A DNA stretch of 61,016 nucleotides. It comes from Myxococcales bacterium. Its GTDB lineage: Bacteria; Myxococcota_A; Polyangia; Polyangiales; JAFGIB01. The stretch is taken from NCBI GenBank assembly GCA_028817905.1, contig JAPPOR010000087.1:1-61016 (forward strand), in the 5' to 3' direction. Within the stretch, counting starts at the first letter, position 1. Each line of letters opens with the position of its first letter. A program made the position numbers and the translations under genes. This document shows positions 1,421 through 56,780 of the stretch, piece after piece. The notes under the pieces were generated by a model that did not search any database, was not told where the DNA came from, and saw only the letters and a program-made list of their open reading frames with translations.

Positions 1421-1476
1421 CGCCGCGAGGGTAGTCCGCCGACAACGATTCCGCTACAACCTGCAACACTCAGAAC

Positions 1477-1588
1477 CTAGCCCGAATCATTCATGACTTG
1501 GGCACGGGCTTTGGCACCGACGGGAATGCTCCCCGTATTCTCTAAGGGACAGAACCCCGTGGTCGAAGGACAAGCGAAGCGGCGAGCG
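1477..1588 (+). mobile_element. MITE-like inverted-repeat element, truncated copy F (left end and core, no right end)
   Basis: CTAGCCCGAATCATTCATGACTTGG...ACGGGAATGCTCCCCGT...GGTCGAAGGACAAGCGAAGCGG aligns to the full copy at 46324-46490. The left internal-loop block is deleted and the right terminal repeat is missing. Confidence 0.75.
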
Positions 1589-1708
1589 CCACCTGGACCC
1601 AGCAACGGCAACGTGTCTACACCTCGACCACAGGAATCCATTCGAGTTCGCGCACGTCAGAGTGCGTGCGCACCGAGCCCGATCGCATCGCCGATCGCAA
1701 GCGGCGGT

Positions 1709-2894: not shown

Positions 2895-3371
2895 TCAGCG
2901 GATTGGCGCGTCCGTCACTGGCGGCCGCACACGTGCCCCGCCTAAGGCGATGTACACGCCCTTCTCGTCCTCGCCAAGCAGACTCTCGAGCCCGGCGGCT
3001 GCAGAGTTATCGAAGCGGGCCGTGAGCTCCCCGGCCAGAATGCTGCAATAGAGCGCGCCGTCGGGGCCCTGGCGCAGGGTCTGTGGATCGAGCCACTCGG
3101 TGCCCCCACCGGACAGCCGTAGTTGCACCCCCTGCGGGGCCAGAGTGACACCACGAACGAAGAACGGGGGGCCCTCCAACGAAATGTAGGCCCAGTTGAT
3201 ATCGTTCGACAGACAGTAGCGGCCGTCCTCGGCACGTCGGATCCACCCATCGAAGCTCTCCACCAGGCGTGGGTGGGTCAGGGGGTCGGGACCGTCGTAC
3301 CAATGCCCGAGCGCGTCCCGACGAATCGCCGTCTCACGCGTTCGTCCCTTGAGGAATGCTGCCGGCTCCAT
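2895..3371 (-). CDS. DUF1285 domain-containing protein
   Basis: GHWYDGPDPLTHPRLVESFDGWIRRAEDGRYCL resembles the DUF1285 N-terminal signature, recalled from memory. Good third-position GC. ATG at 3371. Confidence 0.6.
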   Translation of the reverse strand: MEPAAFLKGRTRETAIRRDALGHWYDGPDPLTHPRLVESFDGWIRRAEDGRYCLSNDINWAYISLEGPPFFVRGVTLAPQGVQLRLSGGGTEWLDPQTLRQGPDGALYCSILAGELTARFDNSAAAGLESLLGEDEKGVYIALGGARVRPPVTDAPIR

Positions 3372-3381
3372 GGAAGCCAGC

Positions 3382-3549
3382 CTAGCCCGGATCGTTCACG
3401 ACTTCGACGCCGCCTCGCTTGTGCTTCGACTCCACAGGGACTTTCGCCACCCCAGGAAATACGGGGAGTATTCCCGTCGGTCGTCGAAAGCCCTGCGAAG
3501 CCGAATCCCTGCGCGGTCCGACGCCGAAGTCGTGAATGATTCGGGCTAC
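3382..3549 (-). mobile_element. MITE-like inverted-repeat element, full-length copy C (168 bp, inverted relative to copy A)
   Basis: Reverse complement aligns end to end with 46324-46490. Ends are CTAGCCCGG...TTCGGGCTAC. Sits 10 bp upstream of the DUF1285 start codon. Confidence 0.9.
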
Positions 3550-3668
3550 CCCGGATCATTCACGAACCCCACATCGCCTCGCTGGTCCTCGACTTCACAG
3601 CGCTTTGAGCTCTCTGGCAGGTCCGAGCAGCGTGCCGCTCGGTCGCCAAAAACCCCTGTAAAGTCGAG
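3550..3668 (-). mobile_element. MITE-like element, variant copy D (CACGAAC subfamily), head-to-tail with copy C
   Basis: CCCGGATCATTCACGAACCCCACATCGCCTCGCTGG matches the family end. It has its own long stem CTCGACTTCACAG...CTGTAAAGTCGAG and a different apical segment. Confidence 0.7.
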
Positions 3669-13391: not shown

Positions 13392-13592
13392 ATGGCGCTA
13401 TCTGAAAAGTTGATCGACAAGCGAGTGTTGCGCCGGTCCCTGGAAAGAGGACTGGTCGACGAGGCAGAGTTCGAAAACCACCTGGCCTCCCTTCCCGACC
13501 TTAGCGGCCAGGTCGAGGACGGCCCAGGGGAACCTGCGGTCCCGGAAGCCAGCCCGCCGCTGCCACCAGCACCGCACGACTTTCAACCGTAG
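13392..13592 (+). CDS. small hypothetical protein (66 aa, Pro-rich tail)
   Basis: Good promoter and SD. Product starts MALSEKLIDKRVLRRSLERGLVDEAEFENHLASLPDLSG. The TAG stop is the first TAG of repeat copy E. Confidence 0.5.
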   Translation: MALSEKLIDKRVLRRSLERGLVDEAEFENHLASLPDLSGQVEDGPGEPAVPEASPPLPPAPHDFQP

Positions 13593-13742
13593 CCCGGACC
13601 TCGCATGACTTCGGCGTCGGATCGCGCGGGGATGGGGCTTGTCGGGGGTTTAAGCAACCGACGGGAGTACACTTCGTTCCCAAGGCGGAAGGCATCGGGA
13701 GTCGAGGTACAAGCGAGGCGGCATCAAAGTCAGGAAGGTTCC
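13589..13742 (+). mobile_element. MITE-like element, diverged copy E
   Basis: GTAGCCCGGACCTCGCATGACTTCGGCGTCGGATCGCGCGGGG...GGAGTCGAGGTACAAGCGAGGCGGCATCAAAGTCA aligns with copy A. The right end has decayed. Confidence 0.75.
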
Positions 13743-13807
13743 AGCGCGAGGCGCCTGCCGTTCACGGTAGGTTGTTACGTCGGATTCTCGGGGATGGGAG
13801 CGTAGCG

Positions 13808-33015: not shown

Positions 33016-33420
33016 ATGCGCATACTGAGTTCAACGCAAGGTGGCATCCGTTGGGTCCCGGCATTCGCGCTGCTGGGGCTTCTGGGTGTAATCGGCTGCA
33101 ACGAGTCGGAGGGCACCGAACGGGTGCCAGGAGCCTATCCGCCGGAGGCGGAGATCGATCGCTCAAAGGGCATCGACCCATCACGACTGGTCGACAGCGG
33201 CATGGGCGGTGACGGCGACATGGCCGCCGGCGACGGCGACATCGCTGCCGGCGACGGCGACATGGCTGCCGGCGCCGGCGACATGGCTGCAGGCGCCGGC
33301 GACATGGGCGGCGACGGCGCCGGCGACGGCAGATGCCCGGCTGAAGACACCGACCCCACTCCAAGGATCAGACCTCAGACCGCGACCGGCCGCAAGGCAC
33401 GGTCGCGGTCTCAATTTTAG
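33016..33420 (+). CDS. small lipoprotein with tandem GDGDMAA heptad repeats
   Basis: Lipobox LLGVIGC. Five to six in-frame 21-bp repeats. Begins 16 nt after the receptor stop. Confidence 0.6.
   Translation: MRILSSTQGGIRWVPAFALLGLLGVIGCNESEGTERVPGAYPPEAEIDRSKGIDPSRLVDSGMGGDGDMAAGDGDIAAGDGDMAAGAGDMAAGAGDMGGDGAGDGRCPAEDTDPTPRIRPQTATGRKARSRSQF
33208..33330 (+). repeat. 21-bp tandem repeat, about 5.8 copies (GGCGACGGCGACATGGCYGCC), in frame
   Basis: Read directly. Encodes GDGDMAA GDGDIAA GDGDMAA GAGDMAA GAGDMGG DGAGDG. Confidence 0.9.
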
Positions 33421-33421
33421 G

Positions 33422-33699
33422 CTAGTCCCGACGTTTCACCAATCTTCGTGGCGCCTCCGATCTTGGGACCTGAGGAGCGCCATCTTCGCTTGCATCTCAG
33501 CGAGTACCAAGTCCGGATTGTCCACCAACCCACATCGCCTCACGTGACTCTCGACTCGGTTTTAGCATCCGCGCATTGGCGGCCGGTGACCGCATGAGCC
33601 CCGTGAAGCCCATGCTGTGTTGATGAATGATCCCGGCTAGCTTCGCGCGCACAAACCCCTGTGCAGTAGACGCCTGCACGGGTCATTCACGACTTGGTG
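33422..33699. mobile_element. cluster of degenerate MITE-like copies or fragments
   Basis: The cluster has three parts. An end-like CTAGTCCCGACGTTTCACCAATCTTCG is at 33422. A CACGAAC-subfamily copy (CCGGATTGTCCACCAACCCACATCGCCTCACG...GATGAATGATCCCGGCTAG) ends at 33640. A further end fragment, GGGTCATTCACGACTTGG, is at 33679-33699. Confidence 0.6.
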
Positions 33700-39211: not shown

Positions 39212-39378
39212 CCAGCCCGGATGATGCATGACTGCGACGTCGGATCGCGCAGGGATTCGGCTTCGCGGAGCTTTCGACGACCGACGAGAATACTGCCTGT
39301 ATTTTCTAGGGCGGCGAAAGTCCCGTGGAGTCGAAGGGCAAGCGAGGCGGCGTCGCAGTCATCAATCATCCGGGCTAG
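39212..39378 (+). mobile_element. MITE-like inverted-repeat element, full-length copy B (167 bp)
   Basis: Aligns end to end with copy A. The terminal repeats carry matched substitutions in both arms. Ends are CCAGCCCGG...CCGGGCTAG. Confidence 0.9.
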
Positions 39379-39979
39379 GCGCCTGCTCCGAATACCCCCG
39401 CATGACCGCGGTCACGCGCAGCGTGTGGCCACGGACGATCATCTCCGATACGACTCGAACCGGACCGACGTGGGGACAATAGGTCGTCCAAATGCGGTTT
39501 CCGGACCGCTGGTTGGTTTCCTCCACCTCGGCACAGTTGGTGAAGTCCCCGGCGGGCGTCTCGATCGCTGCCACTTGACGGGTGAGCTTCGCCTCGACGC
39601 CCTTTCCCGACGTCCAGCTGGCACCCACCTCCAGGGGCTCGCGCAGCAGAAACCCTCCCTTGGCCGGCCGATACCAGCCCTCAGGTCGCCTCTCGTAGGC
39701 TGTCTGCTCCTTGCCGACCTGCACCAGGGCGCTCTTCCCCGGGACGGCGGTGATCACACGCGTCACCACCAGCACGTTGTCGCCGTCACCGGTCTCCACG
39801 TCGAAGGACCACGCGCGCCCCTCCGCGAGGGGAAACAGCGTTTCGGGCGTCCACGGCGCCGGCTCGGGAGCAACCTGCGAGGCGCCCCCAGCGCACCCGA
39901 TCCCCGCAAGCATGAGGACAACCACGCGCGCCACTGCGGGTACTGCACAAGCGCGCGAACGGAGTGCGGCCGCCGCCAT
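39362..39979 (-). CDS. hypothetical lipoprotein
   Basis: Start taken at MAAAALRSRACAVPAVARVVVLMLAGIGCAGG (lipobox). The last 17 nt and the stop lie inside repeat copy B. The track ORF up to 40213 is an open upstream extension. Confidence 0.6.
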   Translation of the reverse strand: MAAAALRSRACAVPAVARVVVLMLAGIGCAGGASQVAPEPAPWTPETLFPLAEGRAWSFDVETGDGDNVLVVTRVITAVPGKSALVQVGKEQTAYERRPEGWYRPAKGGFLLREPLEVGASWTSGKGVEAKLTRQVAAIETPAGDFTNCAEVEETNQRSGNRIWTTYCPHVGPVRVVSEMIVRGHTLRVTAVMRGYSEQAPSPDD

Positions 39980-40250
39980 TCCGCCAACTCGCGATTGGAT
40001 CCAGCTGGGACTTGGCTTGACACGGCCCTCGACGGCCGACCGAATACTCGCTGCAACTGCGAGGGAGGTGAAACGTGTGCCGTCTAGGCTGAGCGAAGCG
40101 CTGCGATGCCGGTGAAATGTCCGGGCTCGCGATACCCCGGAGGCGCGGCGGACGACCCGAACGGGTACTGGCCGGCAGCGGGCGGCAATCGGGTCAAGGC
40201 GCGGCATGATCAAGGTGGCCCTCCTGGCGGCATCGGGTGATCTGGCGGCA

Positions 40251-44031: not shown

Positions 44032-45957
44032 CTAGTCGTTGCGATGCGCGAGTTGGTGGAGACGCTCGCTGGCTGCCGTGAGGCCGGCCAGGCGCTGCTG
44101 GTGGGCGCGCGTGAGGTCCCGGATGCGCTCGACTGTCTGGGAGGTCTCCTCGGAGGCCTTGGCCTGCTGGGCCTGGGATTGATGAAGCTGGTTGACCATC
44201 TGCGAGATATTCTCGATCGCGCTGGTGATCTGACGGCTGCCGCGTGACTGCTCCTGCTGACTGCGCTCGACGTGCTGGGTGATCGTCCGCATCTTCTCGG
44301 CGCTCCCCATGATCAGCTCGGAGCCGCGCGCCTGCTCGGCGGTGGCCGCCGCGATCTGCTGCACGGTTTCGGCGATCCGGGTGATGGCGTCGGTCACCTG
44401 CTTGCTACCCTTGGCCTGCTCGACCGTAGCGCGCGCGATGGCGCCGACCATGTTGGTAGACTTGGTCGAGGAATCGAGAATCTTCTTGAGGGCCTGTTCG
44501 GCCTCCGCGCTCACCTCGACACCCCGATCGACCGTCGTCGCACCCCGCTCGACGGCCTGGATCGCGTTCATGGTCTCTTCCTGGATCGTCTTGATCAGAC
44601 TCGCGATCTCCTTGGTGGAGGTACCGGAGCGCTCGGCCAACTCCTTGATCTCGTCCGCCACCACAGCGAAGCCCTTGCCGTACTCGCCGGCCTGCGCGGC
44701 GATGATCGCGGCGTTCAACGCCAACAGGTTCGTCTGTTCTGCAACGTCGTCGATGACGTTCAAGATGTCGCCGATGGCCTCGATGCGCGAGCCAAGTGAC
44801 ACAATCGCGCTGACAGCATCGGAAGACGATTCCTTGATGCGGTTGATCTCGAAGATCGTCCGGGTAATGGCGTCGGCGCCCCGCTCAGCATCCATGGCGA
44901 CTTGCTCGGACAGGCGTGACGTCTGGTTGGCGTTGGACTGAACCTGGTCGATCGAGACGTCCATCTGGTTCATCGACGAAGAGGTCTCCTCGGTCATGAG
45001 GGACAAGGCGTCGACGTTTCGTGCGACCTCCTTGATGCTGTATGCCATCTCCTCGATCGAAGAGACCGTGTCCCGTACGCTGTTGGCAAGCGTGGCCATG
45101 TTCTCCGCAACCTCGTCGTTGGTCGCCTTCATCTCGAGAATCGACGAGGAAGACTCCTCGGCGCTTGCCGCCAGCACCTCGACACTGTCCGCTACACCGC
45201 GCAGTACCTCCGCTGTGTCGATCACCGCGCGTGCAGCCTGATCGATGGCCGCTGCCTGCTCGCCCACGCTGGCGCCGAACTCGTCAACGTGGCTAGCCAA
45301 GGACTCCTCTGCCTTCGCCAGGTCACGCTGACGGCGCTCTACTTCGCCCCGCTGGGCCTCGGCCTCGGCGCGCAGGCTTTCGGCCTCCGCTCGCAAGTTC
45401 TCGCCTTCCGCCCGCAAGCTCTCGCCCTCCGCTCGCACGCCCTCGACCTCCGCTCGCAGCCTCTCGACCTCCGCGAGTTGACCCTCCTTCTGGCCTCGCA
45501 GGCTCTCGGCCTCGGCGCGCTGGCTCTCGATCTCCCCGCGCAAGCTCTCGATTTCGCCACGCAGGCTCTCGGCTTCGGCTTGCTGCCCCTCGGCCTGATC
45601 TCGCAGGCGCTCCGCATCCTTTTCGATCTCCGACTCACGCGCGGACCGCGTACCGAGGTCCTGCGCGAGATCTTCCAACGCATCGAACACCTGGCCGAGC
45701 TCGGGGGTGGTCGTCATCGGCCGGTTGGGCTGCTCACCGCGCCGGGCCGCCTTGATCGCACTGCGAAGTGCGAAGAGCTGGTCCTTGCCGGCGCCACCGC
45801 CGTCCAGCAGGAACAGCATTCCGCCGATCCCGAGTCCGATGCCGATCAGGCCCGCCCAGTAGTGCGCTACGGGAACCGTGGCCGAGACGACCACGCCGAG
45901 GAGGAGGACGATGGCGGCAGGGAGCCGATTCTTGTTCTCGAGAAGAGTCTTGATCAT
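44032..45957 (-). CDS. methyl-accepting chemotaxis protein (TM hairpin, heptad-repeat linker, long signalling domain)
   Basis: The highly conserved tip is [38 protein letters not shown] at 45957 ([10 protein letters not shown]) precedes two adjacent TM helices. The track ORF up to 46320 is an upstream extension. Confidence 0.9.
45325..45611 (-). repeat. about 13-14 tandem 21-bp units encoding AE(A/G)ESLR-type heptads within the MCP
   Basis: Protein [81 protein letters not shown]. The DNA periodicity is visible. Confidence 0.85.
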
Positions 45958-46286
45958 GACAAGCGTGGACAGAACGCGACATTCCTTCAGACGCAAGGCA
46001 CGCCGGTTTGCTGAAGGTCTTCCGCAAAGATAGGGTAACTTTCGCAGACAAAACGGCGCAATACATCGATGCGTCAGCCGGCCACAGTTGCGCAAACCGC
46101 GACGTGACCGGGCCCACTCGCTATACGGATGGGTAGGTAAGATGGTGCAGGCGATGGAGGCTCCTACGGGACTTCGGGTGACCGGGAGAGCACCTCCCAT
46201 TCCCAAAAGACCTGCTCGTCGCCACAGCCGGAGCAGAGCGAAGCGGCGCGACCCGCGGATTGGGGGACCCGGCTTCGCCGGGACGG

Positions 46287-46310
46287 GGGAAAGGGCGCGT
46301 GCCCTTTCCC
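46287..46310. terminator. 24-bp palindrome GGGAAAGGGCGCGTGCCCTTTCCC (second copy of the 44000 hairpin)
   Basis: 10-bp stem with a GCGT loop. Lies between repeat copy A and the MCP promoter region, downstream of the kinase gene. Confidence 0.5.
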
Positions 46311-46323
46311 GCATGGACACTCG

Positions 46324-46490
46324 CTAGCCCGGATCATTCACGACTTCGGCGTCGGATCGCGCAGGGTTTCGGCTTCACAGGGCTTTCGACGACCGACGGG
46401 AATACTCCCCGTATTTTCTAGGGCGGCGAAAGCCCTGTGGAGTCGAAGGACAAGCGAGGCGGGGGCGAAGTCGTGAATGATCCGGGCTAG
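46324..46490 (+). mobile_element. MITE-like inverted-repeat element, full-length reference copy A (167 bp, perfect 25-bp terminal inverted repeats)
   Basis: CTAGCCCGGATCATTCACGACTTCG at 46324-46348 is the exact reverse complement of 46466-46490. An inner 21-bp stem and an apical hairpin are present. The kinase stop codon lies in its last CTAG. Confidence 0.92.
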
Positions 46491-56682: not shown

Positions 56683-56754
56683 ACTCCGCTCGACCCTATC
56701 CTAGATTTTGCGTCGGATGGCCTCCGACCCCCACGCAGCGCCCCACGGCGCCCA

Positions 56755-56780
56755 AGCCCGGATCATTCATGAACTCGAAC
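56755..56780 (-). mobile_element. MITE-like element end fragment H
   Basis: AAGCCCGGATCATTCATGAACTCGAAC matches the family terminal repeat (CACGAAC-type continuation). No partner end is present. Confidence 0.5.

Follow-up and report, generated by a model that had tools for sequence, protein, structure and literature searches.

A palindromic TA-flanked element with matched changes in both hairpin arms, probably a MITE moved in trans, in a Myxococcota-like genome

Genomic setting and copies of the element

The window (the whole stretch of DNA analyzed here, 61,016 nucleotides long, contig JAPPOR010000087.1 of the Myxococcales bacterium assembly GCA_028817905.1) carries ordinary chromosomal genes, coding among others for CcmB, AhpC, TamB, BamA, ClpB, a TonB-dependent receptor, ExbB/ExbD, TatC, a methyl-accepting chemotaxis protein (MCP) and a Ser/Thr kinase. 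Its ClpB is identical to a protein of the NCBI MAG GCA_028817885.1 and of several ENA "ROBB21-1" metagenome assemblies, and the closest ClpB outside this genome, labeled Myxococcales/Myxococcota, is only 57% identical. The host is hence an uncultured, deep-branching Myxococcota-like organism, and its relatives are too distant to be usable for tests on orthologous copies.

Scattered among these genes, we found a family of non-coding elements of about 167 nt, with terminal inverted repeats of 25 to 31 bp and TA flanks that usually stand within CTAG. At least seven recognizable copies, together with fragments, were recovered in the window by repeat finding, BLAST and a family-specific covariance model, and two further copies were located on different contigs of this genome. 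The copies and fragments are the following:

39212..39378, + strand: copy B, full-length element of 167 nt (CCAGCCCGG...CCGGGCTAG), 87% identity to copy A; covariance model 180 bits; flanks CCAG...CTAG
46324..46490, + strand: copy A, full length, perfect 25-bp terminal repeats, flanks CTAG/CTAG
3382..3548, - strand: copy C, full length, 93% identity to A; adjoins F, with one TA common to both
3546..3667, - strand: copy F, diverged, left arm missing; inner stem and apical hairpin survive with different sequence
13589..13749, + strand: copy D, old, full length, about 70% identity to A, stems largely broken
1476..1606, + strand: copy E, internal deletion of about 27 nt, degenerate right end
33510..33641, - strand: copy J, heavily decayed, with deletions (covariance model E = 0.15)
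33672..33695, + strand: solo fragment, terminal-repeat-like
56752..56777, + strand: solo left terminal-repeat remnant, intergenic
L042:10598-10764: copy G, same organism, unlinked contig (20.7-kb stretch), 166/167 identical to A, flanks CTAG/CTAG
L043: copy H, half copy at a contig end, reached via a spurious ORF

Some reading frames of the element are free of stops, and the copies outside the window were reached through proteins. A profile of the translated +1 frame, searched against 1.84 billion proteins, retrieved two spurious ORFs that extend at their C-termini into other copies, and a short concatenation of the remaining frames retrieved a third. Since the six-frame peptides matched only such spurious ORFs, the element has no coding capacity. 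A 1085-aa concatenation of all six-frame peptides gave no match as a query, and was probably swamped by chance word matches. A pattern scan with the most conserved block of the element found 12 loci in one genome per species (GTDB) and 19 in JGI metagenome contigs, all of them chance matches, and the scan of viral contigs gave two matches; BLAST of copy A against plasmids found none. Sequences extending beyond both ends of the window (L039 and L046) held no further copy. Other assemblies of the same loci showed no presence/absence polymorphism, and D and E were identical throughout. A candidate remnant to the right of G was rejected, its alignment score being no better than that of shuffled sequences.

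The identity of A and G at 166 of 167 positions, at unlinked loci, indicates recent copying. Young copies also interrupt short-read contigs, the ends of which fall inside them. At L043:3918-4045, the half copy H adjoins an inverted fragment of another copy (...GAAAATACGGG|CTAGCCCGG), a junction produced by nested insertion or else by chimeric assembly of short reads at the contig end. This is an apparently recently active MITE family, if we interpret it correctly below, in a poorly known Myxococcota-like lineage represented by metagenomes.

Ends, flanks and target site

The terminal inverted repeats are perfect over 25 bp in A and likewise in its near-twin G, with one G·T there. Those of B pair at 27 of 29 positions, and in B and C the repeats can be extended to about 31 bp. 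TA adjoins all scorable ends except one, the left end of B, which reads CA. The reconstructed targets read C/G-TA-G; CTAG stands at both ends of the two youngest copies, and some copies (C and D) begin with GTAG. At the junction of F and C there is one common TA (...CCGGGG-TA-GCCCGAATC...), the expected outcome if C inserted into the TA flanking F.

From the flanks themselves, we infer that insertion duplicates TA. IS5-type elements make a 4-bp CTAG duplication, and a duplication of this kind would fit the flanks equally well. Elements of the IS630 family duplicate TA (PMC2170065), and IS630, according to the title of Tenzen and Ohtsubo (1991) in the reference list of the same paper, prefers TA within 5'-CTAG-3'. 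The position of TA inside CTAG suggests an element of the IS630/Tc1-mariner type.

Some similarity continues past the ends. Copies B (39379-39388) and D (13750-13759) have 10 identical bases, AGGCGCCTGC, which run from the last bases of the element into the right flank, and A, B and C all continue with GGC beyond the flanking TA. These common bases could correspond to a palindromic target preference (GCC-TA-GGC) or to a slightly longer ancestral end.

Hairpin anatomy of copy B

A reading of the letters of the window made before this analysis (hereafter, the sequence-only reading) had proposed that each full copy folds, as DNA or RNA and on either strand, into one long hairpin. The fold was recovered for B, and its antisense strand folds too. 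The features of the hairpin in B are:

39214..39242, + strand: outer stem, left arm, formed by the left terminal inverted repeat (12 + 15 pairs with a 2-nt mismatch between them)
39348..39376, + strand: outer stem, right arm, formed by the right terminal inverted repeat
39256..39282, + strand: inner stem, left arm
39310..39335, + strand: inner stem, right arm
39286..39306, + strand: apical hairpin, GAGAATAC/GTATTTTC (minimum-free-energy fold)
39330..39350, + strand: right internal-loop block, GTCGAAGGGCAAGCGAGGCGG in B, the best conserved segment of all copies, decayed ones included
Helix 1: 39214-39225 with 39365-39376
Helix 2: 39228-39242 with 39348-39362
Helix 3: 39245-39248 with 39342-39345
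Helix 4: 39256-39282 with 39310-39335
Helix 5: 39286-39293 with 39299-39306

Folded as RNA with its flanks, B reaches -114.1 kcal/mol (z = -9.75), a stability equaled by none of 200 shuffles, and its antisense strand reaches -84.8 kcal/mol as RNA (z = -8.0) and -43.8 kcal/mol as DNA (z = -5.7). For copy A (46324-46490), the one closest to B, the RNA fold has -119.5 kcal/mol (z = -12.7). Across the family, the hairpin spans the whole element, with RNA minimum free energies of -106 to -119 kcal/mol (z from -10 to -13). The finer anatomy described earlier for A was also found: a perfect outer stem of 25 bp (CTAGCCCGGATCATTCACGACTTCG and its reverse complement), asymmetric internal loops, an inner stem of 21 bp in which both reported mismatches turned out to be G·T wobbles, and the apical hairpin ACGGG-AATACTC-CCCGT, whose ACGGG/CCCGT stem is degraded in B.

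Five pairs of B are non-standard (3/169, 16/156, 17/155, 45/128 and 60/114), and not all of them are private to this copy, the A·G at 45/128 being found also in C and D and the G·A at 16/156 also in D. Copy B contains in addition complementary-type changes that lie one position out of register and do not pair, namely T>G with G>C at 39227-39228 / 39363-39364, and G>A with C>T at 39271 / 39322 and at 39289 / 39300. They may have arisen by coincidence or reflect a slipped templated event.

Compensated base pairs

When the minimum-free-energy structure of A was mapped onto an alignment of six copies, four of the pairs touched by the 22 differences between A and B were changed on both sides with pairing kept. 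Three of them are the outer-stem changes at positions 12, 18 and 23 that had been reported in both arms, here numbered as pairs 13/159 (C-G to G-C), 19/153 (C-G to T-A) and 24/148 (T-A to G-C). The T-A at 19/153 is common to B and D and thus goes back to one old subfamily event that is not private to B. The fourth pair, 58/116, belongs to the inner stem and is not part of the terminal repeats. An exchange of A:T for G:C in this stem had been claimed for two copies, and it holds for B; in the second copy (E, 1476-1606), an indel at this place makes it ambiguous. Pair 58/116 is G-C in B (and probably in E), G·T in D, F and a variant of A, and A-T in A, C, G and H, which is a textbook stepwise path through a wobble pair. 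Three extra pairs that B was said to have gained proved instead to be ancestral, since C has G·T/C-G/G-C at these positions and D keeps two of the three; it is copy A that lost them, through two changes in its right arm.

The preservation of pairing in B exceeds chance by compensation counts, covariation and fold stability. With the 22 substitutions placed at random with the same share of transitions, 0.49 compensated pairs are expected between A and B against the four observed (P = 7e-4), and under the same null C and B have five against 0.68 (P = 1e-4), whereas the four pairs between A and D are not significant (2.5 expected). Over the six copies, eight pairs are changed on both sides, compared to 3.4 +/- 1.5 in column shuffles (5 of 500 reach eight) and 3 to 7 in controls with slid partners, and the covariation score is 0.122 versus 0.087 in shuffles (0/500). 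The fold of B (-105.9 kcal/mol) is far more stable than those of random 22-substitution mutants of A (-75 +/- 9 kcal/mol; 1 of 300 as stable), while C (p = 0.04) and D (p = 0.06) are marginal in the same test. The independent compensatory events behind these figures number about three to five, from fewer than 10 copies, so the covariation statistics are low in power.

The double changes might be purely mutational, arising by template switching in a quasi-palindrome that copies one arm from the other, with no function of the hairpin involved. Such switching can write the change of one arm into the other in a single event (PMC8794818), and a long near-perfect palindrome is its classic substrate. 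Three of the four compensated pairs of B cluster within 12 nt of one arm (positions 13, 19 and 24), and the G·T pairs at 58/116 and 78/96 resolve both ways, to A-T and to G-C, as copying from either arm predicts. However, the G·A at 16/156 sits inside that same cluster, is common to B and D, and was never corrected; the G·T pairs 30/142, 50/123 and 53/120 persist in all full-length copies; and the old copies D, E and J have not been rescued. Moreover, uncompensated sites interrupt the compensated ones, so that several separate events would be needed. As the source of the matched changes, template switching thus seems unlikely to us. The family offers a compact case in which the two origins of compensation in palindromic mobile elements, selection on the propagating copy and template switching, can be set against each other.

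Decay of copies, strand asymmetry and loop blocks

Copies A and C differ at 11 positions, seven of them in stems, and none is compensated, while A and G differ by a single one-sided change. At the other extreme, the RNA fold of D has fallen to about -64 to -69 kcal/mol, with about 40% of its pairs non-standard, and E, F and J are deleted or truncated. With one-sided changes only in the young copies and decay in the old ones, pairing appears to be maintained in the lineages that produce copies and not at each insertion site.

Two variants of the copies were seen in other assemblies. In a population variant of C from a different sample (L045:9331-9500), the three nucleotides CCC are absent from the apical loop and the ACGGG/CCCGT hairpin is gone. 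Copy A of another assembly (L014, ENA scaffold_16648) has G58 and T62 (CACGGGGTTTTCG), the states of F, which make G·T pairs; it is either a population variant or the result of collapsed reads from other copies, which would imply a further subfamily.

The non-Watson-Crick pairs of the family consensus (30/142, 50/123, 53/120, 78/96 and 79/95) are all G·T in one orientation, and as G·U pairs in RNA they make each full-length copy about 20 kcal/mol more stable in that orientation. An asymmetry of this kind, carried by three to five sites, is no more than suggestive of a strand-specific single-stranded form. The private one-sided transitions have no G·U bias (about three G·U versus five A·C).

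Conservation in the decayed copies is concentrated in the internal loops. In D, the two loop blocks (alignment columns ~21-40 and 121-140) are identical to A at 20/20 and 18/20 positions, compared to 55 to 75% in the stems, and in E and F the right block again is conserved best. The right block, GTCGAAGGACAAGCGAGGCGG, lies at 39330-39350, 46442-46462, 13701-13721, 1562-1582 and in the 3467-3487 region, and the left block, ACTTCGGCGTCGGATCGCGC, at about 39232-39251 in B. Judging from their conservation, the blocks could be candidate protein-binding sites. That loops are better conserved than stems in decayed copies is left unexplained by the reading of the element as a MITE.

These features raise the possibility that the hairpin is the working form of a specific single strand, either single-stranded DNA or a transcript, needed for propagation or recruited by the host. 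If true, this would account for the asymmetry of about 20 kcal/mol common to all copies, for the series G-C / G·U / A-U at 58/116, and for the 90 to 100% conservation of the loop blocks in D (and of the right block in E and F). It would also mean that a TA-flanked MITE depends on a folded strand, a combination undescribed for IS630-type elements. We regard it as decidedly improbable.

A more specific version has the element moving as a folded single strand, in the manner of REPINs mobilized by RAYT or of IS200/IS605, with the hairpin as the transposition substrate. The strand-asymmetric G·T pairs common to all copies and the GTAG with which C and D begin would be in line with this. Nevertheless, single arms form no REP-like palindrome (z from +0.4 to +1.4), the long terminal repeats, the TA/CTAG on both sides and the TA common to F and C fit cut-and-paste by a DDE transposase, and the window and the fetched contigs encode neither a RAYT nor a Y1 transposase. 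Movement of this type is therefore very improbable.

Gene context and tests of an RNA role

Based on GC3-based gene calls for the window and on the gene calls supplied with the fetched contigs, every copy lies between genes, and the copies occur in each kind of gene context and in either orientation. An ABC ATPase gene (- strand) and the DHFR gene (+ strand) start divergently on either side of copy E, and the C/F pair lies between the divergent starts at 3371 (-) and 3829 (+). Co-directional genes flank D, A and G: D is sense between + genes, A and G antisense between - genes. According to the gene map, J is antisense in a co-directional context as well. Only B is located between convergent genes.

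Two copies touch coding sequences directly. The Ser/Thr kinase gene on the minus strand stops at a TAG (46487-46489) that overlaps with the flanking TA of copy A, and the minus-strand ORF 39362-40213 extends five codons into copy B (...SPDD*), so that the insertion supplied its C-terminus and stop. With copies beside housekeeping genes, overlapping a stop codon or read into by an ORF, the family is a practical cause of assembly breaks and mis-called gene ends in MAGs.

The hairpin could act as RNA, be it as a barrier or terminator, a stabilizer of mRNA 3' ends, a substrate of RNase III (cf. the Correia elements of Neisseria) or an sRNA. The RNA fold is extremely stable and, through the consensus G·U pairs, much more so in one orientation, the states of 58/116 form a classic G-C / G·U / A-U series among copies, B sits between convergent genes and A follows directly after a stop codon. 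On the other hand, only one of the four co-directional contexts is sense (D), the other three being antisense (A, G and J), and E and the C/F pair lie between gene starts. On neither strand is the long stem followed by a T/U run. The whole window, searched with the covariance models of Rfam 15, had no match at gathering score. Neither the lack of G·U bias among private one-sided transitions, nor the loss of the fold in old copies, nor the variant of C that lacks 3 nt of the apical hairpin is what an RNA under selection would lead one to expect. We consider an RNA function improbable, and none of the data call for a role at host level as a terminator or structured RNA. The bidirectional terminator, RNA stabilizer or sRNA that the sequence-only reading had put forward was accordingly not borne out, given the mixed gene context, the missing U-tract, the lack of an Rfam match and the decay of copies in place.

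Some specific candidates were rejected individually. An intrinsic (Rho-independent) terminator is contradicted by the missing U-tract after the long stem and by the location of E and C/F in 5' divergent regions; the closest approach is in copy A, where a weak apical mini-hairpin of 5 bp is followed by ATTTTCT, and this is lost in B. Membership in any Rfam family was discarded because only weak sub-threshold matches were obtained, the best with 23.6 bits versus a gathering score of 70. An integron attC site or a retron RNA was dismissed on context only, as the neighbors are housekeeping genes and the window encodes neither an integrase nor a reverse transcriptase.

A probable MITE moved in trans

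The explanation we favor, at a probability of roughly 60%, is a MITE that a DDE transposase, probably of the IS630/Tc1-mariner type, moves in trans, with a hairpin that results from its palindromic build and pairing that is maintained among source copies. A DDE transposase encoded elsewhere in the genome would bind both terminal repeats, excise the element and paste it into a TA, which would be duplicated. The hairpin over the whole length would follow from the terminal repeats plus the internal inverted repeat. Once inserted, a copy would decay neutrally, and with pairing kept in the lineages still copying, copies that are diverged but intact, such as B, would carry matched changes on both arms. 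Such changes may come from selection among source copies for mutually matching ends, perhaps for fold-back, and occasional templated correction from arm to arm may help.

The partner with matching ends was not found: neither the window nor about 25 kb of unlinked contigs encodes a transposase. Cleavage of the Tc1/mariner type needs no hairpin (PMC2170065), so that constraint by the transposase alone would be insufficient for the compensation at 58/116, in the inner stem, or for symmetric changes at repeat positions that apparently tolerate change. As the alternative to a functional structure, the sequence-only reading had named subfamily masters that co-evolved both ends for the same transposase. 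It is the masters that fit the data better, although a hairpin DNA substrate stands as a possibility.

Comparison with known elements

The element resembles IS630/Tc1-mariner MITEs in its small size and lack of coding capacity, in the length of its terminal inverted repeats (about 25 to 30 bp), in its TA flanks (inside CTAG, as for IS630), and in its dispersed intergenic copies, some of them near-identical and some inserted beside older copies. MITE transcripts typically form very stable stem-loops, QMITE2 being an example, and prokaryotic MITEs are usually described as A+T-rich (PMC10969869). In contrast, the element described here is G+C-rich (about 61%), and it has a second long internal inverted repeat, through which nearly the whole element pairs. 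We take both as minor differences from known MITEs. The partner transposase of this family was not found in the window or the fetched contigs.

Correia elements have about 100 to 160 bp, with repeats of about 26 bp and flanking TA. These Neisseria elements (CREE/NEMIS) likewise consist of terminal inverted repeats around a conserved core, and IHF binding, promoter creation and RNase III processing have been documented for them (PMC2649163). Their transcripts can also form a long hairpin, and they too are inserted beside genes, whose expression they are able to alter. However, we saw no sequence relationship to them, and they belong to another phylum.

REPINs share the hairpin over the whole length and the occurrence of singlets and fragments as decayed remnants, and compensatory changes on both sides of their hairpin are common (PMC3116915). 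They differ in that the arms of our element are not REP palindromes and the element itself is longer, with TA/CTAG flanks and no RAYT gene nearby. Identification as a REPIN or REP doublet was rejected for this family, because the arms alone fold no better than shuffles and the available sequence has no RAYT.

The bcr1 elements of the Bacillus cereus group, of about 155 bp, have the properties of non-autonomous mobile elements; base-pair compensatory changes have been reported to maintain their double-stranded structure, the stability of which was lost several times in evolution (PMC3184786). They have 5-bp direct repeats, a cruciform-like fold and known transcription, unlike the TA flanks and single hairpin of the element studied here. 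As REPINs and bcr1 illustrate, matched changes on both arms are an already known trait of such elements, and the family leaves the knowledge of MITEs unchanged. From its build, it would work like a MITE of the Correia or IS630 type, with no sequence relationship seen to any described family.

Other features of the window

Two tandem arrays of 21-nt units were noticed, one (45304-45640; about 16 units) inside the MCP gene (44032-46320, minus strand) and the other (33186-33322) within the ORF 33016-33420; if translated, they would give heptad-like repeats of seven residues. The DHFR gene next to copy E (1709-2191) is called with 160 or 100 aa depending on the assembly, and its spacing to the neighboring genes is identical.
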